A DNA stretch of 32,000 nt from Paracoccus suum. Its GTDB lineage: Bacteria > Pseudomonadota > Alphaproteobacteria > Rhodobacterales > Rhodobacteraceae. This document shows positions 1,189 to 19,744 of the stretch, piece by piece. A model generated the notes under the pieces. The model ran no database searches. It saw only the letters and a program-made list of their open reading frames with translations, and was not told the DNA's origin. The stretch is from NCBI RefSeq assembly GCF_003324675.1, contig NZ_CP030918.1, forward strand, positions 1,770,001 through 1,802,000, given 5' to 3'. The number at the start of each line of letters is the position of its first letter. The stretch's first letter is position 1. The translations under genes and the position numbers were made by a program.

Positions 1189-1256
1189 GCGGGGTCTCCC
1201 CGCAGAAGGGGGTGTGCCGGCGACCTTGGCGCCGGCCAGGGGGAAGGCTTTCCCCC
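1189..1256. other. Cluster of three GC-rich stem-loops in the intergenic region
   Basis: gcgggg-tct-ccccgc (1189-1203), gccggcg-accttgg-cgccggc (1216-1236), gggggaa-ggct-ttccccc (1239-1256). Located 16 nt downstream of the stop of the 1272-1649 gene. No clear U-tract on the minus strand. Confidence 0.35.
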
Positions 1257-1271
1257 TTCACCTGAATTTGC

Positions 1272-1649
1272 TCACCTGGTCCCGGCCTGCTTCCGACGAC
1301 GGGCCACGGTACGAACGCCAGCACTATCGCCCATGGTCATGTCACCCAGGCTATGGAGATGAAGCGCCGGATGCGATGGCAGCGTCACCGTAAGTTCGAG
1401 CTTGCCGCCGACGGCCTCGACATAGCTGCGCAGCGTCGAGAGATACATATCCGCCTGCTTTTCGATCTTGGACACCGACGGCTGCTTGATGTTGAGGGCC
1501 GAGGCGATGTCTTCCTGCGCTTTGCCGGCGATCTGGCGCAGCTCGCGCAGACCCTCGACCTCCTGCCGCAGTTCCTGATAGCGCGCTTCGATAGCTGCCT
1601 GTTCGTCAGCAGGAAGCCCGGCAATGATTTCGTTCAGGCTCCGAGCCAT
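1272..1649 (-). CDS. XRE-family HTH protein, HigA-like antitoxin of the kind partnered with Gp49/DUF891 (RelE/ParE-superfamily) toxins; orphan copy 1
   Basis: 125 aa. The stretch LRELRQIAGKAQEDIASALNIKQPSVSKIEKQADMYLSTLRSYVEAVGGKLELTV is the typical HTH plus C-terminal beta segment of this antitoxin class. It sits directly downstream of a toxin remnant. Confidence 0.85.
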   Translation of the reverse strand: MARSLNEIIAGLPADEQAAIEARYQELRQEVEGLRELRQIAGKAQEDIASALNIKQPSVSKIEKQADMYLSTLRSYVEAVGGKLELTVTLPSHPALHLHSLGDMTMGDSAGVRTVARRRKQAGTR

Positions 1650-1650
1650 C

Positions 1651-1788
1651 TCAACGTCCCTTCTTTGCGGATTTCAGGCTTTCCACATGCTCGGAAAACC
1701 GTAGATCCGCTTTTGCGATGAGCTGCCGGTAGAACCGCTGCTGACTCTCGCCGGATGCATCGCCCGCTACGCGCCCGATAGTGCTATT
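1651..1788 (-). pseudogene. C-terminal remnant of a Gp49/HigB-like (RelE/ParE superfamily) toxin gene
   Basis: The open frame gives NSTIGRVAGDASGESQQRFYRQLIAKADLRFSEHVESLKSAKKGR*. This resembles the conserved toxin C-terminus (..GGDK.GD.R[WF]Y...IP.AD.l...Hl..l...G). There is no in-frame start. An upstream ATG (1799-1797) is out of frame and terminates after 10 codons. The stop lies 1 nt before the antitoxin ATG. Confidence 0.6.
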
Positions 1789-1794
1789 TCAACG

Positions 1795-1823
1795 TTCATA
1801 GCCTCAAAGCTATACCGGATCAA
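1795..1823 (-). promoter_or_regulatory. Candidate sigma70-type promoter P1 with a palindromic operator in the spacer
   Basis: The minus strand reads TTGATC (1823-1818), a 17-nt spacer, then TATGAA (1800-1795). The spacer contains ATAGC-N6-GCTAT. It is homologous to the element at 7010-7038. Confidence 0.5.
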
Positions 1824-1903
1824 CAAAACCACACGCGACCAAGCGAGTGATCATCCACCGTGGAGTACCGCCCCGATCGCTAGACACTTTATCGAGCGGA
1901 CTT

Positions 1904-2791
1904 TCAGATCGTGAAAGCGGGTCTCGGTCCCGGCCAATCGGGATCGGTTTCCATCTGGCTTGCGAGATCGGCTGCTGCGACCCGCCTCAGGCTAGACGCC
2001 GCAATGAATTGGACACCGAGCGCCAACCTGACAACCGAAAGCCGCTTCAAGCCTGCGGGCTTATATCGGCTCGCAACATAGGGCGGCAGGCTCGCCACCA
2101 CGGCTTGAACTCGCGCATCGTCGCGGTGCGGCCGTGCGGTAGCCATACGCTGGGCGAGCACAGCCAAGTTGTGACCGTCCTTGCCTTTTCGGAAAGAGTC
2201 GGGATCGACACCATCCCAAACCAATGCTGCCTTTATGGACAGCTCGGCGGCCATGCAGATTGGCTGTACTACCGAGTCGTGGCTGAACGAGGTGGGCAAT
2301 GTGTTCGCCACGTCTTCGAGATTCGACCCCGCCATCCGCCAGAGCGTCACCGCGCCAGCATTGCGTTGCTCAACCTCGTTGAGACCCATTGTGAAATCGT
2401 GAATGTCCGCGCCGGCAAAGGCGACGCCAGCGGCGATCGACCGATCTTGGCGGCACCAATTCCACCATTCCTCCGCATTCTCGAAGCCCGTTATCTGCCA
2501 AGGCTGGAGAGAATTCTGACCGAACAGGACGGGGAAAACGGCCTTTCGCACCTGATCGACCGAAGCTACCAATCCGATTCCGGCACCGGGCCAACTCGTC
2601 TCGACTTCCGGCATCATGGCCGCATAAGCATCCATGATGCGTTTGACCTCGGGATTGCCGCCAACCCCCATCACGAAACTGGAGCCGAGCAACTCCATCG
2701 CGGCCCGGAACGGCCGCTGGTGAATGTGAACACCATTCTCGGCATATTTCAGATCCAATCGGCGCAGATCGTCCGCCGTCCACCTACTCAT
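1904..2791 (-). CDS. Uncharacterised protein (295 aa) with a HEPN-like helix; last gene of the operon
   Basis: ATG with AGGAGA RBS 6 nt upstream and a 9-nt gap to the preceding gene. The segment AELSIKAALVWDGVDPDSFRKGKDGHNLAVLAQRM (R201-x5-H207) resembles the HEPN R-x4-6-H / K.HDL..L helix. Confidence 0.75.
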   Translation of the reverse strand: MSRWTADDLRRLDLKYAENGVHIHQRPFRAAMELLGSSFVMGVGGNPEVKRIMDAYAAMMPEVETSWPGAGIGLVASVDQVRKAVFPVLFGQNSLQPWQITGFENAEEWWNWCRQDRSIAAGVAFAGADIHDFTMGLNEVEQRNAGAVTLWRMAGSNLEDVANTLPTSFSHDSVVQPICMAAELSIKAALVWDGVDPDSFRKGKDGHNLAVLAQRMATARPHRDDARVQAVVASLPPYVASRYKPAGLKRLSVVRLALGVQFIAASSLRRVAAADLASQMETDPDWPGPRPAFTI

Positions 2792-2800
2792 TTGGGTCTC

Positions 2801-3631
2801 CTACCGACCGTTGGCTAAGCGCCGGAGGAAGGTTCGCGCGGTAACAAGCACGACGTGGAGACGGAAGGTGCTGTGATCCTCGTCCGAAAGACCGGGGTGC
2901 GATCCTTCGGTGTGCAGCATCTTGAAAAGGCCATTGACGTAGTTCTTCCCGTCTCCGGTCCATTCATTGCGGCTCGTCGACAAGAAGCCGATTTCCGCCA
3001 GCAATGCCCGGCGATTTTCGGAGCTGGGCCTTTTCGCTGCATCTTCCGGGCGGACGTTGCGGGCAATGTCGTCGAACAGGCTTTCAAGGAATGTGCGAAG
3101 TTGTCCGTTGCAGGCAGCCCAATCGCCGCGGGTGTGCGCCTCGATCGCTTGATCGAGATGACCGAGTGGGGTCATGAAAGCGAAGGATTTTAGGAGCCGA
3201 TGCACTTCATCGTCGGTTTCGGGAAGCTGGATTTCTCCCGGCAGCGCGGCTCGAATTGATGCGTTCCGACCATTGTCGTCCCAGACCAACACAAAGGCAT
3301 CGCGGGCAAGCCCACGGGCAAACGCCGTCTGCAATGGATGAATCGCGTCGGGTTGTGCCAGCAGCGCCGCTTGGCGCACGACGGCTTCGCCGAGCGTCAT
3401 GCGACCATCGAGCGTGTCGAGGATTGCATCGACGCGCTGGACGACAATGCGTCCAAGCAGATCGCATTTTTTCGCGACGCTGATGCCGGTATCTGACGAA
3501 ATCTCATCCTCAAGCGCGAGACGAAGCACAACCTGGTTGAAGCGCGCCTGGCTGTGCTGTTCGAGCAGTTCGACGGCAGCAATCAGGGTCGGACGGGTGA
3601 AGGGAGCTGATTGCATTGGCGGGCTACTCAA
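2801..3631 (-). CDS. Uncharacterised protein (276 aa from TTG at 3631, or 271 aa from ATG at 3616); fifth gene of the operon
   Basis: Coherent protein-like translation. The start either overlaps the ATPase stop by 8 nt (TTG) or lies 7 nt after it (ATG). The C-terminal helical region is LRTFLESLFDDIAR...LFKMLHTEGSHPGLSDEDHSTFRLHVVLVTARTFLRRL. No family recognised. Confidence 0.75.
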   Translation of the reverse strand: MSSPPMQSAPFTRPTLIAAVELLEQHSQARFNQVVLRLALEDEISSDTGISVAKKCDLLGRIVVQRVDAILDTLDGRMTLGEAVVRQAALLAQPDAIHPLQTAFARGLARDAFVLVWDDNGRNASIRAALPGEIQLPETDDEVHRLLKSFAFMTPLGHLDQAIEAHTRGDWAACNGQLRTFLESLFDDIARNVRPEDAAKRPSSENRRALLAEIGFLSTSRNEWTGDGKNYVNGLFKMLHTEGSHPGLSDEDHSTFRLHVVLVTARTFLRRLANGR

Positions 3632-5387
3632 ACCGCAGGCCGAATAGCCCCCCAGTGTCGGTCGCGTCGGTCAGCTTCGTGTCCATGACATGGGAGCGGA
3701 TATTGAACCCGGCCTTGAACCCTTCACGCGGCAGCGCGTCAGAGTTCATTGTGACAATGTACTGAAACCCGGCAGCCTCAGCCCGTTCGGCGCCGAGTTG
3801 CAACGCCTTAGCAACCTGCCTTTCGTCCACCCCATCGAATAGATGGCTGTCATGGACCAGAAAGCCGGGACCGCGCCCATTCTTAAGGCTAATCTCGGTC
3901 AACATGAGATCGAAGCAGAATATCTGCATATTGGTAATGCCCTTGCTTCGTTGTCCATCGATATGGACCTCGAATTGGGGGCCGCTTCCGGTCTCGCCAA
4001 TCGTTAGGCTGCCAGCCTTTTCGTAAAGGGACTCCGAGAGCGACTCGAAAATGAGGATAGCCTCGCGGATGATGTCGGTCCGCTCGTGAATATCGTCGCG
4101 TAGCGCCTTGGTCAGGTTGGCCCGTTCGATGTCGAGTTCAGCCTTGGTGCTTTCGATCCGTTCAGCGGTATCGAGCCGCTGGCGAAGTCCCTCGACCTCA
4201 GCCTCGGCCCGGCCGGCTTCTTCGCGCAGCGATGTATAATGTTCGAGTGCTCCACCGGAGCGCAGCACACCCATTATCTGACGACGCCGACGGTCGCGCT
4301 CGGCTGTGCGCTGATCGCGTTCAGCGATGCGGGCCTCTGCCGAGGTGATCTCGGCGGTCAAGTGCGCGCGCCGGTTCTCGATGATAGTTCGGTGGAAGCG
4401 CTCCACCTCGTCGAAACGCCGCCGCACCATGTCGGGGAGGACGACGCCGGCCTCCGCATAGAGTTTCGTAACGTCGCCCAAGTCGGGCGCATCCTCATCA
4501 ACCAGCGACGCGCGAAGCTGTTGCAGGAGATCGCCGTCGATCACATTCTCGACGTTCATCCCGTCAATTTCGCGCGTAATTTCGTTCGCCTCACGCTCCA
4601 GAGCTTTGTATTCAGGCACTACCTCAAACGTTTCAAGCTGCTGGCGAAGCCGCACGGCACGAGCCTCCGCGACAGTCAGCTTCGTTCTGAGATCGGCCGC
4701 TTTGCCGAAGAAGCGGCCAAGATCGCCGCTGCGGGCTGCCTTACGCAGTTCCTGAGCGACCTTCTCCTGCGCGCGCAGTTCCTGAAAGCGGCCGGGAATA
4801 CTCCAGTCGAGGCCAAGCAGATAGCAGATCGAGACCTGCTGATCCCACGGCTGCTGCATTCCCGAATGTTGCATTGGCTGCTGAAAGCCGCCGCTGTTCT
4901 GACGACGGACGAAATAGGAGAAGAGCGAGCGGAACGACGGCTGGAAACGCTCGGCTTCGTCGCCCGCCGAAATGGGCAGGTCGAACCAAAGCTGACCGAG
5001 GTTGGCTTTCCAGTTCTCATTCGATAACTCGAACAGGCCGGCGCGCGTGTCGAACTGCGGCGGGATCGGCCAGTTCTCGACGGCGCCATTGACAAAGACC
5101 CGGCTCGGCTTGGCGCCGCTACGGGCCGCCGAGATGGTTTCTTGCGCAATGTCGACGGAGACGTCGAAGGTCCATGCCGTCAGCGCATCAGAACGGAATA
5201 TGCTATCCTTGCGCGCGTCGGCGCCAAACAAGAAATGGACCAGCTCGATGAAACTGGTCTTGCCCGCACCATTCCTCGACTGGCGATCGTTGGCGCCTTC
5301 GCTCTTGTCGGCCAGCAGGATGTTCAAACCCGGCTTGAAGGTCAGTGTCTTGAAAGACGCGAGGTCGCTGCCGAAACGGCGGATCAT
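3624..5387 (-). CDS. ABC-3C-type ABC/SMC-like ATPase with a coiled-coil insert (DUF2326-like C-terminus), 587 aa
   Basis: Walker A NGAGKTS (aa 39-45). Long Arg/Glu/Leu-rich coiled-coil at roughly aa 200-470. Signature-like GQRSKGITNMQIFCFDLML. Walker B/D-loop GFLVHDSHLFDGVD. ATGA start/stop overlap with the upstream 81-aa gene. Confidence 0.85.
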   Translation of the reverse strand: MIRRFGSDLASFKTLTFKPGLNILLADKSEGANDRQSRNGAGKTSFIELVHFLFGADARKDSIFRSDALTAWTFDVSVDIAQETISAARSGAKPSRVFVNGAVENWPIPPQFDTRAGLFELSNENWKANLGQLWFDLPISAGDEAERFQPSFRSLFSYFVRRQNSGGFQQPMQHSGMQQPWDQQVSICYLLGLDWSIPGRFQELRAQEKVAQELRKAARSGDLGRFFGKAADLRTKLTVAEARAVRLRQQLETFEVVPEYKALEREANEITREIDGMNVENVIDGDLLQQLRASLVDEDAPDLGDVTKLYAEAGVVLPDMVRRRFDEVERFHRTIIENRRAHLTAEITSAEARIAERDQRTAERDRRRRQIMGVLRSGGALEHYTSLREEAGRAEAEVEGLRQRLDTAERIESTKAELDIERANLTKALRDDIHERTDIIREAILIFESLSESLYEKAGSLTIGETGSGPQFEVHIDGQRSKGITNMQIFCFDLMLTEISLKNGRGPGFLVHDSHLFDGVDERQVAKALQLGAERAEAAGFQYIVTMNSDALPREGFKAGFNIRSHVMDTKLTDATDTGGLFGLRFE

Positions 5388-5629
5388 GGTTGAACCCTCC
5401 GCACCAGGCCGCGATCGAAGTCAACGGCACCAATCGTGAAGAGCAGGTCGAGCGAGAGAATGAACCACTGATAGTCAATGGGAGCATTGGGCGCATGAAG
5501 CGAACGGCGTCCGCGCATCTCGTCCCACAGCCGCGACATCGTCATCGGTCGCTTTAGAATATCGAGAACCTCTGCGCCAACGCCAATGAGCGCGCGATCG
5601 GGACGGACATGCTTTGTCGGGAGGATCAT
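5384..5629 (-). CDS. ABC-3C middle component-like small protein (81 aa)
   Basis: Its size, position between the effector and the ATPase, and pattern (PDRALIGVGAEVLDILKRPMTMSRLWDEM....IDYQWFILSLDLLFTIGAVDF) are typical of the small MC proteins. ATGA overlaps at both ends. Confidence 0.8.
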   Translation of the reverse strand: MILPTKHVRPDRALIGVGAEVLDILKRPMTMSRLWDEMRGRRSLHAPNAPIDYQWFILSLDLLFTIGAVDFDRGLVRRVQP

Positions 5630-6540
5630 GATGCCTCCACAGAAATGATGGTCGGATCTTCGAAGATGTCGCAGCTATCGAAAAAATAAGCGAGGACTGC
5701 CAGCGCCGCTCCCTGACGCTTCGGCTCGCCATTGAAGCCGGCATAATCCTGAAGGTGCTTGAAAATCGTGTCGGCCGGAAGATCGAGAGCTTTCAGCTCG
5801 GCATATCGCAGTCGGAAAGCCTCGGCGATGCGCTCGCCGAGATCGGGACGGGGAATTTTCTGGAAGAATGTATCAACGAGCGCCGACTTCCGTCGACCAA
5901 TGCGCAGAAACAGGCCCGATTCCTCGGATAGTGCGTTTTTTTCCAGCTTTTCCGGCGACGGCGGCGTCAGTGGCGGATCGCTTGGATTGGGCTCCTGCCG
6001 CTGGAGCGCCTCGATGATCGGCACCAGATCAGACATGACGAGGCGATCCACGATCGCTATCGAAGCCGCAGGACCGAAGAGGGCCTGAAGCGCGGCCAGA
6101 TCGAGCATCATGGTAAGATCCAGCAACTCCGGCTCGGACCAAGTGGTAATGAGCAGCGGCGCATGAGCCTGACGAAGGCCGTCAATATGCTGAACCGCGT
6201 TCGGCGGGAGTCCGCGCCCGTCGTTATGGACGAAGACCCACTCCAGCATGTTGCCGTTCCAATGGGCACGGGCACCGTGAAAGTCTTCATCGACTTTGGC
6301 GATGAGGTCGGCTTCCTTCATGGCATCGGGGGCGTAGCACTGGAAAACCGAGCCGGAGCTGATCCGGCGGCCATCGCATTTCAGGTCCCCATAGGGACCG
6401 TAGGGGCGGACCTCCTCGAAATCAGCACCGAGGGCATGGCCTGCGAGAAGCACGAACCAATCCTGAAAGGCGGTGCCTTTTTTGGTGTGAAACGCCAAAC
6501 GGAAACGATCAACGTAGATGGACCGCTGCAACTCATCCAT
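5626..6540 (-). CDS. ABC-3C effector-like protein (304 aa): Mrr/PD-(D/E)xK-like N-terminal domain plus helical C-terminal domain
   Basis: Start taken at ATG 6540 (MDELQRS...), overlapping the XRE stop as ATGGATGA. The N-terminus FQDWFVLLAGHALGADFEEVRPYGPYGDLKCDGRRISSGSVFQCY resembles the Mrr-cat motif FE..v..ll...G....GDgGiDG....vQcK. The C-terminal half is helical, as expected for the shared C-terminal domains of ABC-3C effectors. Confidence 0.8.
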   Translation of the reverse strand: MDELQRSIYVDRFRLAFHTKKGTAFQDWFVLLAGHALGADFEEVRPYGPYGDLKCDGRRISSGSVFQCYAPDAMKEADLIAKVDEDFHGARAHWNGNMLEWVFVHNDGRGLPPNAVQHIDGLRQAHAPLLITTWSEPELLDLTMMLDLAALQALFGPAASIAIVDRLVMSDLVPIIEALQRQEPNPSDPPLTPPSPEKLEKNALSEESGLFLRIGRRKSALVDTFFQKIPRPDLGERIAEAFRLRYAELKALDLPADTIFKHLQDYAGFNGEPKRQGAALAVLAYFFDSCDIFEDPTIISVEAS

Positions 6541-6913
6541 GGCGCCGCCTTGGCGTCGGATCGTCGCTCTTCTTCCGCACCGATGCGGCTCTGACAGGTA
6601 CAAGATCGCCAAGATGATGAATCCGCAGCACCGGCCGCTTGGGTAGCTTGACAGTCAGCTCCAATTCGCCGCCGACGGCTTCCACATAATTGCGCAAAGT
6701 CGAGAGGTGCATGTCACTCTGCTTCTCGATCTTGGAGACGGACGGCTGCGTAATATTCAAAGCGGATGCGATATCCGCCTGCGCTTTGCCTGCGATCTGA
6801 CGAAGTTCGCGCAAACCCTCGACCTCTTGTGTCATATCCTGCTGACGCGCATCTATGACGGCCTGCTGGTCGTGAGGAAGGAGAGCATCGATATGGTCGG
6901 TGCTTCTACCCAT
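6533..6913 (-). CDS. XRE-family HTH protein, HigA-like; paralogue of 1272-1649 and first gene of the ABC-3C-type operon
   Basis: Start taken at ATG 6913 (MGRSTDHIDALLPHDQQAVI...), giving 126 aa. Roughly three quarters of the positions are identical by eye to the 1272-1649 product over QEVEGLRELRQIAGKAQ.DIASALNI.QPSVSKIEKQ.DM.LSTLR.YVEAVGG.LELTV. Confidence 0.85.
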   Translation of the reverse strand: MGRSTDHIDALLPHDQQAVIDARQQDMTQEVEGLRELRQIAGKAQADIASALNITQPSVSKIEKQSDMHLSTLRNYVEAVGGELELTVKLPKRPVLRIHHLGDLVPVRAASVRKKSDDPTPRRRHG

Positions 6914-7034
6914 CTTGCTGTCCTTCCTTGATACGTGTTGGCATGGTGACGTTGCTGCCAAACGACAGATCAGCCAATGCCGTGATTCCTTCGACAATAG
7001 ATCTGCGTTTGTATAGCTTTAAGGCTATGTCCGG
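6906..7034 (-). pseudogene. Possible second toxin remnant (weak)
   Basis: The frame without a start codon gives PDIALKLYKRRSIVEGITALADLSFGSNVTMPTRIKEGQQDG*. It aligns loosely with the toxin C-terminus at 1651-1788 ([FL]Y...I..ADL.F...V......K.G). Its TAG overlaps the XRE ATG (GATGGGTAG). Confidence 0.3.
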
Positions 7035-7038
7035 TCAA
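7010..7038 (-). promoter_or_regulatory. Candidate sigma70-type promoter P2 with a palindromic operator, upstream of the XRE/ABC-3C operon
   Basis: The minus strand reads TTGACC (7038-7033), a 17-nt spacer, then TATACA (7015-7010). The spacer contains ATAGC-N6-GCTAT. An ungapped alignment with P1 matches 21 of 29 positions by my hand count. Confidence 0.5.
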
Positions 7039-7327
7039 CGGAAAGGGCGTGTGGCCCGTCCGGCGAGGCTACCGTAGATCGGCGACAGCTCGCGGCCCAG
7101 GCGTCGAGATCATCGACGGCATAGCGGACCCACTTGCCGAACTTGTGGTAGGCAGGTCCGCCGCCGAGCGAGCGGTAGCATTCGAGCGTGTGGGCCGACA
7201 GCGCGAGGTATCGCGCTGCGGCTTCGGTATCGACGAAGCGGATCGGGCCGGCGTCGTCGACAAATTGGGCGCGGCGCAGGATGTCGGGTGTCGGCCAGCG
7301 GCGTTGGGCCTTGGCTTCCTCACGCAT
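7025..7327 (-). CDS. Excisionase/AlpA-type (MerR-like) HTH DNA-binding protein, 100 aa
   Basis: Start taken at ATG 7327 (MREEAKAQ...), overlapping the integrase stop as ATGCGTGA. The segment FVDTEAAARYLALSAHTLECYRSLGGGPAYHKFGKWVRYAVDDLDAWAA matches the excisionase-family HTH pattern. Confidence 0.7.
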   Translation of the reverse strand: MREEAKAQRRWPTPDILRRAQFVDDAGPIRFVDTEAAARYLALSAHTLECYRSLGGGPAYHKFGKWVRYAVDDLDAWAASCRRSTVASPDGPHALSVDRT

Positions 7328-8732
7328 GATCGGCCTCCTGCGCTTCAACTCGCTTGCTGCCGGGCGGCAGGGTCCGGTTCTCACCGCTGCGGTGGCGGAA
7401 GGGCCGGTAGTTTCCGACGCGCGTGCGCGAGGCGTATTTGCCGTCCTCAAACCCGAGCGGCTTGCCGTCCGAGCCGGGGATCGCGGGTGCAGACTCCACG
7501 ACCGGCGCGACGGGCGGCGGCTCCATAGCGGGAGGCGGCGGCGCGGGCGGCTGGTGCTCCACGCCGATCACGTTCATCCGGCGCCGTGTCACGGCTTCCG
7601 CCGCCGCCCGGACAGGCTCGTCCTCGGTGTGGACGTAACGCATGAACATCGTCACCGTCTTGTGGGCGGTGAGCGCCATGCCGACCTTCACCGGCACGCC
7701 GGAGTTGGCGATATCGGTGGCGGAGCGATGCCGGATGCCATGGGTGCCGACATGAGGAAGGCCCGACCGCTCCAGAATGCGCTTCCAGCCTTGGTAGTAG
7801 GTGTAGGCCGACATCGGCTTTTCCGGGTCAAAGATCGAAGGGCAGACATAAGGCGAATCCACCATCAGCGGCGCGTTCTCGAAAAGGCGCTGGGCCTCGG
7901 CGCTCATCGGCTTCGACATCCCGCCCGTCTTGCTGTCCGGCCAGACGACGCGGCGGTTGTCGAAATCGACCCAGGCCCATTCGAGTTCGGTGATCTCCGA
8001 CATGCGTGCGGCAAACTCGAACTGAAGCCGGATGGCCAGAACAATGAACGGGTGTTCCAGTCCTTCCGCCTCGGCACGGTCAAGATATTCGAAGAGTTTG
8101 CGCATTTCCCCATCGGTGATGAGGCGGGTCTTGCCGCGTTCGGGGTATTTCGGGACATGGCGGCAGGGATTGGAGCCATCAGGCCGCAATCCCCAGACCT
8201 CGGCCACGTTGAACATTTTCCGGCACATCGCCAGAACGCGGTTCGCGCTGGTGGGGGACTTCGCCATCTTCTTCATGAGATCGGCAATGTCGGCGCGCGT
8301 AACATCCGGCACCTTCAATTGCCCGAGCTTCGGAATGAGGTGGCGCTTGCCCCGTTCCCGATTGGACTGGACGGTCGAGGGCTTATTGCGACCCTCAGAA
8401 TAATCGGTGATGAAACGATCGAAGAGTTCTTTGACCGTCGGCGCCTGACGGGTCGCCGTCCGCTCGGCGCTGGGATCGCCGCCACGCCGGACCTCGGCGA
8501 GCCAGTCCTGCGCGACCCCACGCGCCTGTTCGACGGTGATCTCGCCGTAGCGGCCAATGGCGGGCTTTCGGCGCTGACCGCTGTTCGTGACATAGGCGAT
8601 CATGAAAGTTTTCCGACCAGCGGGCGTGACCTTCACGAGAAAGCCGGGTATCGTCGTATCGCGGAGTTCGTAGTCGCGTTCTTGCGGGGTTGCGGCGTCA
8701 ACAGCCGTCTTGGTGAGCTTGATTTTGGCCAT
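7320..8732 (-). CDS. Tyrosine-type site-specific integrase (P4-like, DUF4102-type N-terminus), 470 aa
   Basis: N-terminus MAKIKLTKTAVDAATPQERDYELRDTTIPGFLVKVTPAGRKTF. Catalytic region HGIRHRSAT...TAHKTVTMFMRYVH. AAGGAGG RBS 7 nt upstream of the ATG. Confidence 0.95.
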   Translation of the reverse strand: MAKIKLTKTAVDAATPQERDYELRDTTIPGFLVKVTPAGRKTFMIAYVTNSGQRRKPAIGRYGEITVEQARGVAQDWLAEVRRGGDPSAERTATRQAPTVKELFDRFITDYSEGRNKPSTVQSNRERGKRHLIPKLGQLKVPDVTRADIADLMKKMAKSPTSANRVLAMCRKMFNVAEVWGLRPDGSNPCRHVPKYPERGKTRLITDGEMRKLFEYLDRAEAEGLEHPFIVLAIRLQFEFAARMSEITELEWAWVDFDNRRVVWPDSKTGGMSKPMSAEAQRLFENAPLMVDSPYVCPSIFDPEKPMSAYTYYQGWKRILERSGLPHVGTHGIRHRSATDIANSGVPVKVGMALTAHKTVTMFMRYVHTEDEPVRAAAEAVTRRRMNVIGVEHQPPAPPPPAMEPPPVAPVVESAPAIPGSDGKPLGFEDGKYASRTRVGNYRPFRHRSGENRTLPPGSKRVEAQEADHA

Positions 8733-8752
8733 TCCTAACCTCCTTTGAGGCC

Positions 8753-8788
8753 GGATTTCAGGTGCAAAATAGGAGCACCTGGAAATCC
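8753..8788. promoter_or_regulatory. Imperfect 13/14-bp inverted repeat just upstream of the integrase start
   Basis: ggatttcaggtgc (8753-8765) and gcacctggaaatcc (8775-8788) are complementary apart from a 1-nt indel, with a 9-nt loop. It lies 21 nt upstream of the int ATG. Confidence 0.45.
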
Positions 8789-8869
8789 AGCCATGGCGTG
8801 TGCCCGGTTAGGTATGGATGTGTTGATAGCCGAAAAAAGCTAGTGCCTACAGACGGTTATCGGGAAATC

Positions 8870-8896
8870 GGATACCCCCGGATAGACAAAGGATAG
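8870..8896 (+). repeat. Three phased GGATA(G) direct repeats next to the att core
   Basis: GGATA at 8870-8874, GGATAG at 8880-8885 and GGATAG at 8891-8896. Spacing is 10 and 11 nt, about one helical turn. Candidate arm-type integrase or Xis binding sites. Confidence 0.35.
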
Positions 8897-8910
8897 GCCA
8901 TCTGGGCTCG

Positions 8911-8966
8911 CTTAAAATCCCTGGGGCCTGAGGCCCGTGCGGGTTCGAGTCCCGCGGCCCGCACCA
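8911..8966 (+). tRNA. tRNA-Leu(UAA) 3' partial copy (anticodon loop to CCA), not a complete gene; probable att site of the island
   Basis: Reads cttaaaa (anticodon loop, TAA), tccct (3' anticodon stem), gg-ggcc-tga-ggcc-cgt (long type-II variable arm), gcggg-ttcgagt-cccgc (T arm), ggcccgc-a-cca (3' acceptor strand, A73, CCA). No complementary 5' acceptor strand (GCGGGCC), D arm or 5' anticodon stem is present upstream. Confidence 0.75.
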
Positions 8967-9081
8967 ACCATCCCGTCCTGCGCACAGCGACACCGCGGCG
9001 CGTTGCCGAGGCGGGGCGGCATGCTTAGTCTGTCCGCCGATCCGGGCACATCCCGGCCGGCCGGAAGAAAAGTGAGACGCG

Positions 9082-14165: not shown

Positions 14166-14229
14166 GTTTCGATCCCTTTTCCGGCAGCCCGCCAGATTGA
14201 CCGCCGTGTCAGATCAAGGGATTATGCCG

Positions 14230-14258
14230 CCCTGCGCCGGTCATGAACAGGCGCAGGG
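14230..14258 (-). terminator. Candidate stem-loop downstream of ettA
   Basis: ccctgcgcc (14230-14238) pairs with ggcgcaggg (14250-14258), a 9-bp stem. No strong U-tract. Confidence 0.35.
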
Positions 14259-14276
14259 ATCTCTCAACCAGTCACA

Positions 14277-15932
14277 TCACCGCGTGAATTTCTTGTACTT
14301 CACCCGCTTCGGCTCGATCGAGTCCGGACCCAGGCGGCGCACCTTGTCGGCCTCGTAGGCCTCGAAGTTGCCCTCGAACCACTCGACATGCGCATCGCCC
14401 TCAAAGGCCAGGATATGCGTGCACAGACGGTCGAGGAAGAAGCGGTCGTGGCTGATGATCACGGCGCAGCCGGCGAAATCCTCCAGCGCGGCTTCCAGCG
14501 CCTGCAGGGTCTCGACGTCCAGATCGTTGGTCGGCTCGTCCAGCAGCAGGACGTTGCCGCCCTCTTTCAGCAGTTTGGCCATGTGGACGCGGTTGCGCTC
14601 GCCCCCCGACAGCAGGCCGACCTTTTTCTGCTGGTCGGTGCCCTTGAAGTTGAAGGCGCCGCAATAGGCGCGGCTGGCGATGGTCGCATCGCCGAGCTGG
14701 ATCAACTCGGCGCCGCCAGAGATTTCCTCCCATACGGTGGCCTCGGGGTTCAGCGCGTCGCGGGACTGGTCGACATAGGACAGCTGCACCGTCTCGCCGA
14801 GGGTAATGGTGCCTTCGTCGGGGGCCTCGCCGCCGGTGATCATCCGGAACAGGGTCGACTTGCCGGCGCCGTTCGGGCCGATGACGCCGATGATTGCCCC
14901 CGGCGGGACGGTCAGCGACAGGTCCTCGATCAGCAGCTTGTCGCCCATCGCCTTTTTCAGACCGGCGATCTCGATCACCTTGCCGCCCAGGCGCTCGCCG
15001 TTGGGGATGACGATCTGCGCGTTGCTGATCTTCTCGCGCTCGGACTTGCCGGCCATTTCGTTATAGGCGTTGATCCGGGCCTTCTGCTTGGCCTGACGGG
15101 CCTTGGCGCCCGCGCGGATCCAGTTAAGCTCGCGCTCAAGCTGCTTTTGCTTGGCCTTGTCCTCGCGCGCCTCTTGGGCTGCGCGCTTGGCCTTCTGCTC
15201 CAGCCAGGCGGAATAGTTGCCCTCGTAGGGGATGCCGCGGCCGCGATCCAACTCGAGGATCCACGAGGTGATGTCGTCGAGGAAATAGCGGTCGTGCGTC
15301 ACCGTCAGGATGGTGCCGGGATATTCGATCAGGTGCTTTTGCAGCCAGGCGATGGTCTCGGCGTCGAGGTGGTTGGTCGGCTCGTCCAGCAGCAGCATGT
15401 CCGGCGCCTCGAGCAGCAGCTTGCACAGCGCGACGCGGCGGCGCTCGCCGCCCGAGAGGCTCTCGACATCGGCATCGTCGGGCGGGCAGCGCAGGGCCTC
15501 CATCGCGACGTCAACCTGGGAATCGAGGTCCCACAGGTTCTGGGCGTCGATTTCGTCCTGCAAGGCCGCCATCTCGTCGGCGGTCTCGTCCGAATAGTTC
15601 ATCGCCAGCTCATTGTAACGGTCCAGCTTGGCCTGCTTGGCCTTGACGCCTTCCATGACGTTGCCCCGGACGTTCAGTGCCGGGTCCAACTGCGGCTCCT
15701 GCGGCAAGTAGCCCACGGTCGCGCCCTTGGCGGCCCAGGCCTCCCCGGAAAAATCCTTGTCGGTGCCGGCCATGATCCGCAGCAGCGAGGACTTGCCCGC
15801 CCCGTTCACGCCGACGACGCCGATCTTGACCCCCGGCAGGAAGTTCAGGTGGATGTTCTCGAAGACTTTCTTGCCGCCGGCATAGGCCTTCGAGACGCCA
15901 TCCATGTGGTAGACATACTGATACGAGGCCAT
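14277..15932 (-). CDS. ettA: Energy-dependent translational throttle protein EttA (ABC-F ATPase), 551 aa
   Basis: MASYQYVYHMDGVSKAYAGGKKVFENIHLNFLPGVKIGVVGVNGAGKSS... Two ABC cassettes and a typical EttA N-terminus and length. Confidence 0.95.
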   Translation of the reverse strand: MASYQYVYHMDGVSKAYAGGKKVFENIHLNFLPGVKIGVVGVNGAGKSSLLRIMAGTDKDFSGEAWAAKGATVGYLPQEPQLDPALNVRGNVMEGVKAKQAKLDRYNELAMNYSDETADEMAALQDEIDAQNLWDLDSQVDVAMEALRCPPDDADVESLSGGERRRVALCKLLLEAPDMLLLDEPTNHLDAETIAWLQKHLIEYPGTILTVTHDRYFLDDITSWILELDRGRGIPYEGNYSAWLEQKAKRAAQEAREDKAKQKQLERELNWIRAGAKARQAKQKARINAYNEMAGKSEREKISNAQIVIPNGERLGGKVIEIAGLKKAMGDKLLIEDLSLTVPPGAIIGVIGPNGAGKSTLFRMITGGEAPDEGTITLGETVQLSYVDQSRDALNPEATVWEEISGGAELIQLGDATIASRAYCGAFNFKGTDQQKKVGLLSGGERNRVHMAKLLKEGGNVLLLDEPTNDLDVETLQALEAALEDFAGCAVIISHDRFFLDRLCTHILAFEGDAHVEWFEGNFEAYEADKVRRLGPDSIEPKRVKYKKFTR

Positions 15933-16010
15933 CGCGAAGCTCCTGATCCCTAGGTTTGGCGGCTATGTAGGGGTTTGCAGGGCAAAGCGAAAGCGGTCAG
16001 CCGCATTGTC

Positions 16011-16460
16011 CTAGGCGTCGGGGCCGATCACGCCCTTGCGCAGGGTGATGCAACCGTAAAAACGGCGTTCGCCGGTCTGAATCACGGCATAGGCGCCGCG
16101 CGCGACGTCGTAGAAGGCGAAGCGCTCGATGCCGATCATGGGGCGGTGGCGGCCTTCGTGGCGGTCGATGACGGCCTGCACCTGTTCCTGCACCCGGGGG
16201 ATCTCGTCCGGCTGGTCAACGACCTGCATACGGCCTGCGAAATCATCGACAAACGTGTCCAGGGGCAGGACCGACAGCACCGCATCGGCCGCCTCGGGCA
16301 GGGTGCAGTCCATGCGCAGCAGGCTGCCGTGGACCGTCGATTGCGCCACCTGATCGGAGGGGAAATTCGCGTCGGCCAGCACCAGAAGGTCGCCATGGCC
16401 CATGGCGCGCAGCACGTACAGCACCTCGGCATTCAGGCGCGGATCGATTCCCTTCAGCAT
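16011..16460 (-). CDS. RbsD/FucU-family sugar mutarotase/pyranase-like protein, 149 aa
   Basis: MLKGIDPRLNAEVLYVLRAMGHGDLLVLADANFP... is characteristic of the RbsD/FucU transport protein family. Confidence 0.8.
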   Translation of the reverse strand: MLKGIDPRLNAEVLYVLRAMGHGDLLVLADANFPSDQVAQSTVHGSLLRMDCTLPEAADAVLSVLPLDTFVDDFAGRMQVVDQPDEIPRVQEQVQAVIDRHEGRHRPMIGIERFAFYDVARGAYAVIQTGERRFYGCITLRKGVIGPDA

Positions 16461-16590
16461 GTTGCGTTCCCTTGCTGGCGTGCTCCGGCTCAGGACTAGC
16501 CGCGTGCGACGCGGCTGTCATCATCGGCGATTGCACCGCCGGACAGGGGCGGCCCAAAAGGGATTGCGCCATCAGCGCGGACATTCAGCC

Positions 16591-16620
16591 AAGCAAAAGG
16601 GCGGACCTTTCGGCCCGCCC
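16591..16620 (-). terminator. Rho-independent terminator after the BMP-family transporter operon
   Basis: On the minus strand, a 9-bp GC-rich stem with one mismatch (16599-16607 / 16612-16620) and a 4-nt loop is followed by TTTTGCTT. It lies 22 nt after the stop at 16642. Confidence 0.7.
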
Positions 16621-16641
16621 CTTGTCTCGCGAAATCCCCGA

Positions 16642-17721
16642 TCAGCTCGGCAGCTGCGCGGTGATTCCCTCGACAAAGAAGTTCATGCCCGACAGTTCTT
16701 CGTCGGTCGCCTTCTGGCCATCGGCAAGCCAGTCGCTGCCGTCCTGCTTTTTCAGCGGGCCGGTGAAGGGGTGCAGCTCGCCCTTGGCAAGGGCGTCCTT
16801 GACCGCCTCGGCCTTGGCTTTCACGTCCGCCGGAACGGCATCGGTGATCTCGCCGATCTCGACCTCGCCGTCGCCGATGCCCAGCCAGACACCCTCGGAT
16901 TTCCACGTGCCATCCAGCACGGCCCCGACGCGGCGGGTATAATAGGGCGTCCAGTTATCGATGATCGAGCTGATGCGCGGCTTGGGCTTGAAGTTGGCCA
17001 TGTCGCTGGCCTGGCCAAAGCCGTAGACCCCGGCCTCCTGCGCCTTGGCGAGGGGGGCGGTGGAATCGGTGTGTTGCATGAACACGTCCACGCCCTCGGC
17101 GATCAGGGCGGCGGCGGCGTCGGCCTCCTTGGCGGGGTCGAACCAGCTGCTGACCCAGACGACCTTCATCTCGACCGACGGGTTCACCTTGCGCGCCGCG
17201 AGGAAGGCGCTGTTGATGCCCTGCACGACCTCGGGGATCGGGAAGCTGCCGATATAGCCGATCTTGTTCGACTTGGTCATCAGACCGGCGATGGTGCCGA
17301 TCACCGCGCGGCCCTCGTAGAAGCGGGCGTCATAGGTCGAGACGTTGTCGGCGCGCTTGTAGCCGGTCGCGTGCTCGAACTTCACGTCGGGGAATTTCTT
17401 GGCGACGTTGATGACCGCGTCCATGAAGCCGAAGCTGGTCGCGAAGATCAGCTTGTTGCCGGCCAGCGCCAGCTGGGTCAGCGCGCGCTCGGCATCGGCG
17501 CCCTCGGGGACGCTTTCGATGTAGGTGGTCTTGATCTTGTCGCCATAGGTCTTTTCGATAGCCTGCCGGGCGAGGTCGTGCTGGTAACTCCAGCCGCCAT
17601 CTCCGACCGGACCGACATAGATGAAGCCGACCTTCAGCGGCTCGATGGCCTGTGCCCGGACGGGCAGGGCGGCAAGGGTGGCGAGGCCGGCGGCCGAGGC
17701 GAGGAGGGTTCTGCGATCCAT
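16642..17721 (-). CDS. BMP-family (basic membrane protein / nucleoside-binding type) ABC transporter substrate-binding protein, 359 aa
   Basis: Start taken at ATG 17721 (MDRRTLLASAAGLATLAALPVRAQA, a Tat-like signal). The segment KVGFIYVGPVGDGGWSYQHD is typical of the BMP/PnrA-like family. Confidence 0.9.
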   Translation of the reverse strand: MDRRTLLASAAGLATLAALPVRAQAIEPLKVGFIYVGPVGDGGWSYQHDLARQAIEKTYGDKIKTTYIESVPEGADAERALTQLALAGNKLIFATSFGFMDAVINVAKKFPDVKFEHATGYKRADNVSTYDARFYEGRAVIGTIAGLMTKSNKIGYIGSFPIPEVVQGINSAFLAARKVNPSVEMKVVWVSSWFDPAKEADAAAALIAEGVDVFMQHTDSTAPLAKAQEAGVYGFGQASDMANFKPKPRISSIIDNWTPYYTRRVGAVLDGTWKSEGVWLGIGDGEVEIGEITDAVPADVKAKAEAVKDALAKGELHPFTGPLKKQDGSDWLADGQKATDEELSGMNFFVEGITAQLPS

Positions 17722-17753
17722 CAAAGGGCTCCCTGTCGTGATGCTTGTTGGTG

Positions 17754-18629
17754 TCAGCGGGTGGCGTGAAAGGTCTGGCCCAGCGATCCGGGGGCCGATC
17801 CGGCGCCGCTGCGGGAAAACTTTGCGCGGGCCGATATCAGCACGAGGGCGAGGATCGTGGCAAGATAAGGCGAGGCGGCCAGCAGTTGCGTCGGTACGGC
17901 GAACCCGGCGGCCTGGGCGCGCAGGTGCAGCACGGTGACGCCGCCGAAGAGCCAGGCCCCGGCCAGAACGCCCCAGGGCGACCAGCCGGCAAAGACGACG
18001 ATGGCGACCGCGATCCAGCCGGCGCCGGCGGTCATGCCCTCGGTCCACTGCAGCACGCGGGCGATCGAGATATAGGCCCCGCCGACGCCAGCCATCGCGC
18101 CGCCAAAGGCGATGGCAGCCAGCCGCAGCGCGCGCACCGGATAGCCGAGACCATGGGCGGCCTCGTGGTTTTCGCCGACCGCGCGCAGCACGAGGCCAGA
18201 TCGGCTGCGGTTAAGCCACCACCACAGCAGCGGCACCATCGCGAGGCCAGCCCAGATGACCCAGTCAAACCTCACCGGGGGCGCCTTGACCCCCTCGTAG
18301 GGGCGGCCGAACATCGCCGTCAGGCCAAGGCCGAACAGCGTCAGCGCGAGGCCGGTCGCGACCTGGTTGGTCAGCAGCCCCAGCGTCAGCACCGCAAAGA
18401 TCAGGGACAGGGCCGCGCCCGCCAGGGCTGCTGCGACAAAGCCGACCGTCGGGCTGCCGGTGGCGTGGGCGGCGGCAAACCCGGCCAGCGCGCCGGTGAT
18501 CATCATGCCTTCGACGCCAAGGTTCAGCACACCCGCACGCTCGACCACCATCTCGCCCAGTGCAGCGAACAGGATGGGGGTCGCGGCCGCGATGAGCAGA
18601 GCCAGCAGGGCCATCGGATCGGTGATCAT
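17754..18629 (-). CDS. ABC transporter permease (BMP-type system), 291 aa
   Basis: Start taken at ATG 18629 (MITDPMALLALLIAAATPILFAALGEMVVERAGVLNLGVEG...). ATGA overlap with the upstream permease stop. Confidence 0.9.
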   Translation of the reverse strand: MITDPMALLALLIAAATPILFAALGEMVVERAGVLNLGVEGMMITGALAGFAAAHATGSPTVGFVAAALAGAALSLIFAVLTLGLLTNQVATGLALTLFGLGLTAMFGRPYEGVKAPPVRFDWVIWAGLAMVPLLWWWLNRSRSGLVLRAVGENHEAAHGLGYPVRALRLAAIAFGGAMAGVGGAYISIARVLQWTEGMTAGAGWIAVAIVVFAGWSPWGVLAGAWLFGGVTVLHLRAQAAGFAVPTQLLAASPYLATILALVLISARAKFSRSGAGSAPGSLGQTFHATR

Positions 18630-19744
18630 GCGTGCGGCCTCCAGCGGATGCGAAACCGGGTCAGCAGGTCGAACCCCAGCAGAAAGAACAGCAGCATGCC
18701 CTGGAACACCTGCACGCTGGCGGCCGGCAGGTTCAGCGACATCTGCGCCAGCTCGCCGCCGATATAGGTGAGCGCGAGCAGGAGGCCTGCCAGCAGAATG
18801 CCAATGGGATGCAGCCGGCCGAGGAACGCGACGATGATGGCCGTAAAGCCGTAACCAGTGCCGAAGCTGTCGGTGATCTGGCCGGCGGGTCCGGCGACCT
18901 CGAAGAGGCCGGCCATCCCGGCGAGGGCGCCCGACAGGCCAAGGCACAGCGCGACCAGCCGGCCCGGCATCACCCCGGCAAACCGCGCCGCGCGCGGTGC
19001 CTCGCCGGCGACGCGGATGTGAAAGCCGATCAGGCTGCGCGACATCAGCACCCAGATTGCCAGCACGGCGATCAGCGCCGCGATCACGCCCCAGTGCAGC
19101 CCGGTGCCGGAGATCAGTTCGGGGTTCGACGCTGAGGGGTATTGCTGCAGGTTGCGCGAGCCGGGAAAGCCGAAGCCCTCGGGGTTTTTCATCGGCCCAA
19201 ATGCCATCCAGGCAGCGATTTTCTTGGCCACATAGACCAGCATCAGCGAGACGAGGATCTCGGACGCACCGAACCAGTTGCGCAGCAGGGCAGGGATCAT
19301 GCCCCAGGCCCAGCCGCCGACAGCGCCCGCCAGAACCATCGCCGGAAATATCCACCATGCCTCGGTCGGATAGGCGGCCAGCGCGACGGCCGCGCCGCAG
19401 ATCGCGCCGATGATGTACTGCCCCTCGGCGCCGATGTTCCAGATACCCGCGCGAAAGCCGACGGCGAGGCCGCAGGCGATAAGGATCAGCGGCCCCGCCT
19501 TGACCAGCAGCTGGGGGCGCGAATAGCCCGATGCCGGGCCGAACAGCGGGTCCCAGAAGATCGTGCGAATCGCGGCAACCGGGTCGAACCCCATCAGCGC
19601 GAACAGGATGCCACCGGCGATCATCGTCGCCAGCACCGCTATGATGGGCGTTGCCACCTGCCACAGCACCGAAGGCACGGCGCGCGGCTCGAGGCGGAAC
19701 ATGACGGGCCGGGTTGCTGTCGAAACGCTCATGATGCCGCGCAT
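18626..19744 (-). CDS. ABC transporter permease (BMP-type system), 372 aa (alternative start at 19732)
   Basis: Multi-pass hydrophobic protein with ...IFWDPLFGPASGYSRPQLLVKAGPLILIACGLAVGFRAGIWNIGAEGQ... The permease pair is typical of this transporter class. Confidence 0.9.
   Translation of the reverse strand: MRGIMSVSTATRPVMFRLEPRAVPSVLWQVATPIIAVLATMIAGGILFALMGFDPVAAIRTIFWDPLFGPASGYSRPQLLVKAGPLILIACGLAVGFRAGIWNIGAEGQYIIGAICGAAVALAAYPTEAWWIFPAMVLAGAVGGWAWGMIPALLRNWFGASEILVSLMLVYVAKKIAAWMAFGPMKNPEGFGFPGSRNLQQYPSASNPELISGTGLHWGVIAALIAVLAIWVLMSRSLIGFHIRVAGEAPRAARFAGVMPGRLVALCLGLSGALAGMAGLFEVAGPAGQITDSFGTGYGFTAIIVAFLGRLHPIGILLAGLLLALTYIGGELAQMSLNLPAASVQVFQGMLLFFLLGFDLLTRFRIRWRPHA

Follow-up and report, generated by a model that had tools for sequence, protein, structure and literature searches.

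A small defence island of Paracoccus suum was examined in a 32,000 nt stretch of contig NZ_CP030918.1 (assembly GCF_003324675.1, positions 1,770,001 to 1,802,000 of the forward strand), hereafter the window, to which all coordinates refer. Six genes are packed head to tail on its minus strand between nt 1904 and 7038. The region from about nt 1191 to 8967 is probably a small integrative island with stacked defence cargo, the core of which is an XRE-type repressor gene (XRE1) together with a short type II Lamassu system, made up of an effector (LmuA), a middle component (LmuC) and an SMC-like ABC ATPase (LmuB). The two genes that follow, here called gene 5 and gene 6, would be passengers. An initial annotation of nt 1904–7038, made from the letters and a list of open reading frames (ORFs) with translations only, had described all six as a single ABC-three-component (ABC-3C) operon.

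Family assignment of the core trio

Each of the three core proteins matches a Pfam family of ABC-3C systems. The 304 aa effector carries a full-length match to CTD10 at residues 170–294 (E-value 1e-14), the 81 aa protein matches MC6 over 73 of the 76 profile positions (4.5e-24), and the 587 aa ATPase matches DUF2326 (2e-43). The locus has a DUF2326-type ATPase with an insert, an MC-family protein encoded between effector and ATPase, and an effector that ends in a CTD, which is the make-up that defines ABC-3C. These Pfam families reportedly follow Krishnan et al. 2020. With the PADLOC models, the effector was recognised as PDC-M68A (1.1e-18) and the ATPase, over its full length, as PDC-M68B (9.1e-166), the two proteins whose joint presence defines PDC-M68; the PDC classes of PADLOC are untested defence candidates. 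The PADLOC LmuB model PDLC03859 gave a partial and far weaker match to the ATPase (residues 13–418, 4.9e-14). Homologues on RefSeq plasmids of Sphingomonas, Phaeobacter, Enterobacter, Brucella and Polaromonas, at 47–65% identity, are named "ABC-three component system protein" or "ABC-three component system middle component 6". An NCBIfam search with the six proteins returned only noise. Judged by its profile matches, the trio is an already catalogued ABC-3C/PDC-M68 system, and the family assignment of the initial annotation was right.

ABC-3C is equated in the literature with type II Lamassu (LmuA/LmuC/LmuB; DdmABC), and the Lamassu membership of the trio rests on that literature. The annotation had also taken neither the mechanism nor the trigger of the class to be known, and here it was mistaken. 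The mechanism of the Lamassu family was largely solved in 2024–2025, cryo-EM structures exist, and both anti-phage and anti-plasmid activity of Lamassu/DdmABC have been validated. In the cryo-EM structures, an LmuA1B2C1 complex holds LmuA as a sequestered monomer; in vitro the complex responds to dsDNA ends and in vivo to the phage replication origin, after which LmuA is activated by tetramerisation. DdmABC is triggered by palindromic, hairpin-forming DNA. Four of six Lamassu family members tested provide defence, which proceeds by abortive infection and requires the ATPase site, the effector and lmuC, and published surveys find Lamassu in 10–15% of prokaryotic genomes.

The window system shares with DdmABC of Vibrio cholerae, a type II short Lamassu, the gene order effector, small middle component and SMC-like ABC ATPase, an LmuB of about 600 aa that is without a zinc hook and has S after the Walker B D, and an effector that joins a putatively nuclease-type N-terminus to an ABC-3C CTD. 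It differs in its effector, which appears PD-(D/E)xK/Mrr-like, whereas that of DdmABC is of the Cap4 type, and in its regulation, in which an XRE repressor would take the place of quorum sensing. DdmA carries CTD7 and DdmB carries MC3, so the window system, with CTD10 and MC6, belongs to another subfamily of the same superfamily. It resembles PDC-M68 by direct profile matches, and adds to it only the XRE gene and the downstream passengers. Lamassu systems with Mrr and PDDEXK endonuclease effectors were described by Millman et al. 2022, and like them the window system would have a restriction-endonuclease-type LmuA, a likeness of predicted domain type.

The average length of short LmuB proteins is 600 aa; their Walker A takes the form GK[ST] and their Walker B the form hhhhD[Q/S/T/E]. 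The window ATPase has the corresponding features (587 aa, NGAGKTS and FLVHDS), with S in place of the first G of Gx4GK. In an alignment of 22 ATPases that are 34–90% identical to the window ATPase, the Walker A, signature and Walker B residues are kept, and both motifs named in the initial annotation, NGAGKTS and FLVHDSHLFDG, are present and invariant at N39, G42 and K43 and at F509, L510, H512, D513, S514, F517, D518 and G519. The two halves are separated by a charged, Pro/Gly-poor helical insert of about 260 aa (residues ~196–455) that contains no CxxC motif. The CTD10 model of Pfam also matches residues 288–409 of the ATPase (nt 4161–4526, mid coiled-coil) over its full length (1.6e-15). 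The idea that part of LmuB is a copy of the LmuA CTD found no support from BLASTP or hhalign between the two families, and the match may reflect either a composite model or a very distant shared module.

The N-terminal region of the effector (residues 1 to ~135) has no Pfam nuclease match. Its AlphaFold2 (AF2) model (predicted local distance difference test, pLDDT, 81) has the topology alpha-alpha-beta-beta-beta-alpha-beta-alpha-beta, and Foldseek returned EcoT38I (probability 0.93), the Cap4 nuclease (0.84) and Hef/Mus81, at weak E-values of 0.04–0.4. Eight residues, E42, E43, D52, K54, D56, Q67, Y69 and K82, are invariant in 39 homologues; D52 and D56 are those that the annotation had singled out. 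The best reading of model and alignment is that this domain is a PD-(D/E)xK-type nuclease.

The conserved unit

Related loci were fetched (labelled L###), among them 80 genome loci with ATPase homologues 60–98% identical to that of the window, and these 80 were searched with all of the window proteins. Effector, middle component and ATPase occur together in 80 of 80, with the same offsets in nearly all. The XRE gene is limited to a close clade (ATPase identity at least 83%), where it is a conserved partner of the trio. Gene 5 lies directly behind the ATPase in 14 of the 80 loci. Gene 6 lies behind the trio in a single one (L036, Devosia equisanguinis), whose island is essentially that of the window; among all loci fetched, gene 6 adjoins the trio only in L036, L086 and L121. 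Both genes are missing from the trios of L006–L015, at 89–95% ATPase identity. Since gene 5 and gene 6 are also found elsewhere without the trio, in settings of other defence genes or mobile elements, the conserved unit is XRE plus trio, and genes 5 and 6 are separable cargo.

The six ORFs were all present at the positions given in the initial annotation, and its junction sequences matched exactly. Read from the reverse strand, the XRE1 stop and lmuA start overlap by 8 nt as ATGGATGA (nt 6533–6540). The overlaps between lmuA and lmuC (nt 5626–5629) and between lmuC and lmuB (nt 5384–5387) are both ATGA. These overlaps are not chance, as the offsets of effector, middle component and ATPase are constant in nearly all 80 loci and the XRE/effector overlap is exactly identical in 26. 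Behind the ATPase stop there is either a 7 nt gap to the ATG of gene 5 or, if the TTG is used, an overlap. All homologues of gene 5 begin M(R/Q)SAPFTRPT, which identifies the ATG at nt 3616 as the start and the 7 nt gap as the real junction. Gene 5 and gene 6 are separated by 9 nt (nt 2792–2800), and the AGGAG ribosome-binding site at this junction belongs to gene 6. Genes 5 and 6 were probably inserted downstream as passengers that are co-transcribed with the trio.

Gene 5

No match to gene 5 was found in Pfam, PADLOC (E up to 10) or NCBIfam. Its AF2 model (pLDDT 82.6) has a winged-helix-like N-terminal region and a C-terminal helical bundle, and the only meaningful Foldseek neighbours of the bundle are HEPN structures (2q00, 1o3u, 4nqf, HepT), at weak scores (probability 0.6–0.93, E 0.3–1.3). 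By an exhaustive profile search the family comprises 673 clusters at 50% identity. It shares the motif R-[LM]-H-x4-H-P-G-L-S-D (RLHPxGSHPG), which fits the HEPN Rx6H, with R in 39 of 45 members, and N170, R174 and H240 are invariant. Orthologues of at least 58% identity, that of the window included, read KMLHT[ED]GSHPG here (residues 229–242), with M replacing R whatever the neighbouring genes; the possibility that the R-to-M change tracks association with Lamassu was tested, and it does not. Gene 5 may encode either an RNase of atypical HEPN type or a derivative without catalytic activity. We take its predicted architecture, with an N-terminal helix-turn-helix-like and a C-terminal HEPN-like region, to resemble that of AbiJ.

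The surroundings of gene 5 were examined in 80 metagenome loci, and in 58 of them an ORF of 100 aa or more lies upstream on the same strand. That ORF encodes a DUF2326 ATPase in 16 cases, a PIN toxin in 11 and an AbiEii nucleotidyltransferase in 6, and in the remaining loci an integrase, an SMC_N/AAA_23 ATPase, DUF6602 or other proteins. Downstream of gene 5, the 80 loci have Hypoth_Ymh, OLD-like ATPases, DUF4238 or nothing, and gene 6 only twice. Gene 5 followed by Hypoth_Ymh was seen in L001, L016, L018, L022, L024, L025, L032, L033, L090, L091 and L098, which include sister islands and an integrative and conjugative element (ICE) of Pseudomonas syringae; an unannotated protein of 518–539 aa is often third, and this module can sit downstream of Lamassu or of an 888 aa SMC_N/AAA_23 ATPase. 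The Hypoth_Ymh protein that follows gene 5 matches PD-Lambda-3_B of PADLOC (2.8e-82).

Gene 5 could be a facultative accessory that docks on SMC-like ATPase sensors, as a second arm of Lamassu, effector or adaptor, with gene 6 as unrelated cargo. The 16 of 58 metagenome loci with a DUF2326 ATPase directly upstream, some of these ATPases being only 34–49% identical to that of the window (L092, L095, L149 and L161–163, with gaps of 12–48 nt), agree with this, as do two loci in which the 888 aa SMC_N/AAA_23 ATPase precedes gene 5 (L097 and L099) and a third where its gene is split (L001). Most gene 5 loci have other upstream neighbours (PIN, AbiEii, integrase, DUF6602 and others), however, and most DUF2326 trios are without gene 5. 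The association could also mean shared island descent, as integrases of 62–65% identity are present in several of the distant loci. We consider such an accessory role unlikely.

Gene 6 and its relationship to gene 5

The C-terminal half of the gene 6 product (residues 150–246) has a weak match to Pfam HEPN (PF05168, 0.077). In its family, 28 of 43 members match this model, the best at 7.2e-05 and under the curated cut-off, and some sources name homologues 'HEPN domain-containing protein'. A search of the Protein Data Bank (PDB) with the gene 6 profile gave no match, and nor did PADLOC even at E up to 10. Homologues occur alone in integrase/defence islands of Kosakonia, Aquitalea, Ensifer, Pectobacterium and Blastomonas, and none of these solo loci has gene 5 or an ABC-3C trio nearby. 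Gene 6 is a stand-alone, lineage-specific addition. No relationship between gene 5 and gene 6, or between gene 6 and Ymh, was seen with hhalign.

Genes 5 and 6 might alternatively make up a two-gene HEPN module of their own, much as gene 5 is combined with Hypoth_Ymh/PD-Lambda-3_B in the sister islands. Gene 5 is followed by Hypoth_Ymh, usually with a 4 nt overlap, in at least seven genome and seven metagenome loci, the window lineage has gene 6, another HEPN-type protein, in the Ymh slot, and hhalign gave a weak hint (probability 10%, E 0.003) of a common N-terminal domain in gene 5 and Ymh. Against this, gene 6 stands alone in all other contexts examined, gene 5 is often without a HEPN partner and matches no PADLOC model, PD-Lambda-3_A included, and the 9 nt gap and separate AGGAG site set gene 6 apart, making a dedicated pair an unlikely explanation. 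PD-lambda-3 acts by abortive infection (Vassallo et al. 2022). Its B-like Ymh gene is present only in the sister loci; the window is without Ymh, and genes 5 and 6 match neither A nor B.

A broader version, in which gene 5 is a plug-in second arm for SMC-like sensors, serving divergent LmuB lineages as well as the unrelated 888 aa SMC_N ATPase with interchangeable HEPN partners (Ymh/PD-Lambda-3_B or gene 6), is quite improbable. If true, gene 5 would link the sensing of DNA to an output that is regulatory or directed at RNA, and the Lamassu of the window would have a modular dual effector. Most likely, genes 5 and 6 encode independent abortive-infection-type RNases, or derivatives of these, rather than Lamassu subunits.

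The XRE regulator and its predicted control region

A palindrome, ATAGC-N6-GCTAT, lies about 100 nt upstream of the XRE1 start, where it overlaps the stop codon of the preceding xis-like gene. It occurs twice in the 32 kb (0.02 expected), the second copy being about 150 nt upstream of XRE2, a paralogue of XRE1 at the distal end of the island. The genes of XRE1 and XRE2 form a 300 nt direct repeat of 70% identity. In 28 of 29 XRE-bearing related loci (L006–L041) the palindrome is single and always upstream of the XRE gene. Alignment of these upstream regions revealed TTGAC(C/A) 4–5 nt before the palindrome, a 3′ half-site that enters a TATAnn -10 box, and a 17 nt spacer, and this layout is conserved while the flanking sequence has diverged. 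The arrangement is that of an autorepressed promoter; conservation is the basis on which promoter, operator and repression are proposed. A generic scan for sigma-70 promoters and terminators was uninformative, at background level.

In 11 sister loci, an intact gene for a 121 aa Gp49-family toxin (Pfam Gp49, 1.3e-20) lies between operator and XRE. A tblastn search with the intact toxin of L022 located a remnant between the second operator and XRE2 (79% identity, 1.1e-15), which, set against the intact copies of the sister loci, identifies XRE2 as an orphan antitoxin. There is no toxin gene upstream of XRE1, where about 100 nt separate operator from start. The window thus resembles HigBA-type Gp49/HTH_37 modules in that XRE1 and XRE2 are both HTH_37 proteins and sister loci retain a toxin between operator and XRE, and differs from them in that the toxin is missing before XRE1 and truncated before XRE2, and in that translation of the antitoxin gene is coupled to that of lmuA. 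The toxin of the sister loci, the remnant and the coupled overlap together indicate that the XRE protein is an antitoxin-derived repressor that became joined to the Lamassu genes. Two plasmids, of Enterobacter kobei (L171) and Brucella abortus (L172), carry DUF2326 trios of ~49% identity with a RelB/DinJ antitoxin gene directly upstream. This suggests that a different antitoxin-type DNA-binding protein was recruited to the XRE position, a repeated solution.

That XRE1 is no more than an orphan antitoxin left behind, without a part in the control of Lamassu, is very unlikely. Its descent from a Gp49/HTH_37 toxin-antitoxin pair and the lack of an XRE gene in trios below 77% ATPase identity would fit such an origin, but the lmuA overlap is identical in 26 loci, the conserved promoter/operator is the only recognisable upstream promoter, and distant plasmid trios have the RelB/DinJ gene in the same position.

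The proposal of the initial annotation, that all six genes are one extended ABC-3C system with genes 5 and 6 as required components, can draw on their tight spacing on one strand, on the lack of a convincing terminator between them (in the same uninformative, background-level scan), on the repetition of the six-gene order in Devosia equisanguinis (L036) and the metagenome contig L121 and on the gene 5–gene 6 pair of L086, but it is highly improbable given that gene 6 accompanies the trio in one island lineage only and gene 5 in 14 of 80 loci, that close trios have neither, and that both genes occur elsewhere without it.

Proposed mechanism

The steps proposed for XRE1 and Lamassu are, for the latter, transferred from characterised Lamassu systems. 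One promoter (TTGACC, 17 nt spacer, TATACA) probably drives expression of XRE1-lmuACB, and an XRE dimer would bind ATAGC-N6-GCTAT, which covers the spacer and the -10 box, and autorepress the operon. An LmuB dimer with LmuC would grip a single LmuA by its C-terminal domain and keep it in an inactive state. LmuB and LmuC would respond to ends in the DNA of an invading phage or plasmid, or to structures associated with its replication; hydrolysis of ATP would then release LmuA, and the freed protein would oligomerise via its CTD to give an active nuclease, so that the infection is aborted.

Several points weigh against this picture. The CTD10/MC6/DUF2326 subfamily figures in PADLOC as an untested candidate only, and the characterised DdmABC is built from CTD7 and MC3. 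A profile of the 22 ATPases searched against PDB sequences (E up to 10) returned only coiled-coil noise and no Lamassu or other structure. As no solved structure was matched and the LmuB match is only partial, the mechanism is transferred between sequences that lie far apart. For LmuA, the nuclease fold leans on weak Foldseek scores and conserved acidic and lysine residues, and Q67-x-Y69 stands where the classical (D/E)xK lysine falls. The generic sigma-70 scan did not list the XRE1 promoter site. Lastly, gene 5 lies 7–12 nt 3′ of DUF2326 ATPases from lineages 35–49% identical to that of the window, and may be functionally linked to them. Sequence and profile searches of the PDB with the ATPase, the effector, gene 5 and gene 6 gave nothing useful.

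Organisation and borders of the island

The features of the island are listed in Table 1.

Table 1. Genes and other features of the island, from the integrase-proximal to the distal end (window coordinates).
Feature	Position (nt)	Strand	Description
3′ half of tRNA-like sequence	8912–8966	+	Long variable arm; T-arm GCGGGTTCGAGTCCCGC; acceptor strand GGCCCGC; ACCA; read directly
Tyrosine integrase	7320–8732	-	470 aa; Pfam Phage_integrase 1.4e-18, Arm-DNA-bind_3 2.6e-17, Phage_int_M
Xis/AlpA-like HTH_17 gene	7025–7327	-	100 aa from ATG at 7327; Pfam HTH_17 8.7e-07
XRE1-Lamassu promoter/operator (predicted)	7010–7038	-	-35 TTGACC 7038–7033; ATAGC-N6-GCTAT 7028–7013; -10 TATACA overlaps the 3′ half-site
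XRE1	6533–6916	-	127 aa, ATG start; longest ORF reaches TTG at 6997; HTH_37 (HigA-like) XRE-family regulator, Pfam 4.6e-08
LmuA-type effector	5626–6540	-	304 aa; PD-(D/E)xK-like N-terminal domain (1–~135) and CTD10 (170–294)
LmuC-type middle component (MC6)	5384–5629	-	81 aa
LmuB-type SMC-like ABC ATPase (DUF2326 family)	3624–5387	-	587 aa; short-Lamassu size, without zinc hook
Gene 5	2801–3616	-	271 aa, ATG at 3616; alternative TTG at 3631
Gene 6	1904–2791	-	295 aa
Second promoter/operator (predicted), upstream of XRE2	1798–1823	-	-35 TTGATC 1823–1818; ATAGC-N6-GCTAT 1813–1798
Gp49/HigB-like toxin remnant	1657–1770	-	C-terminal 38 aa kept; N-terminal ~82 codons deleted
XRE2	1272–1649	-	HTH_37 paralogue of XRE1, distal island end; Pfam 3.7e-08

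The setting beside int/xis genes on a mobile element, proposed in the initial annotation, is confirmed by the Pfam matches of the tyrosine integrase and the HTH_17 Xis-like protein. Homologues of the integrase, 79–94% identical, occupy the same relative position in L016, L022, L023, L025 and L036, and in related loci those of the Xis-like protein (80–91%) lie beside the integrase. An overlap of 8 nt (nt 7320–7327) joins the integrase stop to the Xis-like start, so that int and xis are tightly coupled and read towards the XRE promoter. The G+C content is ~59% across nt 1500–7000 and 65–70% in the rest of the window.

The borders were located by comparison with Devosia equisanguinis (L036), to which nt 1191–8967 are 94.6% identical, the similarity stopping at nt 8967. 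Nucleotides 1–1194 are 98.7% identical to the far flank of L036, and at the junction (nt 1191–1194) L036 has 4.5 kb of extra DNA (14199–18728). From ORFs read by eye, this extra cargo presumably encodes metal-resistance-type proteins (ChrA-like, CsoR/RcnR-like and CDF-like). Three consecutive G+C-rich hairpins lie at the same junction in the window (nt 1185–1260), which may be a point of cargo exchange. At the integrase-proximal end, the tRNA-like fragment is a probable att remnant; read by eye and with no tool result, it is presumably from a tRNA-Leu. No complete tRNA or tmRNA was found at the island ends by ARAGORN or Rfam searches, and the window has no second copy of the tRNA 3′ fragment, so the integrase-distal border is only approximate and is defined by the L036 comparison alone.

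Significance

The locus is unremarkable within a widespread defence family, and its value is incremental. The trio offers a compact, clear-cut example of the CTD10/MC6/DUF2326 branch, its putative nuclease effector being no longer than 304 aa. The pairing of XRE1 with ATAGC-N6-GCTAT could explain how a toxic abortive-infection operon is silenced, and XRE1 would be an antitoxin reused as a defence regulator. Genes 5 and 6 represent two uncatalogued, apparently HEPN-type families, carried in defence islands and matched by none of the PADLOC models searched; both would be cheap candidates for defence screens.

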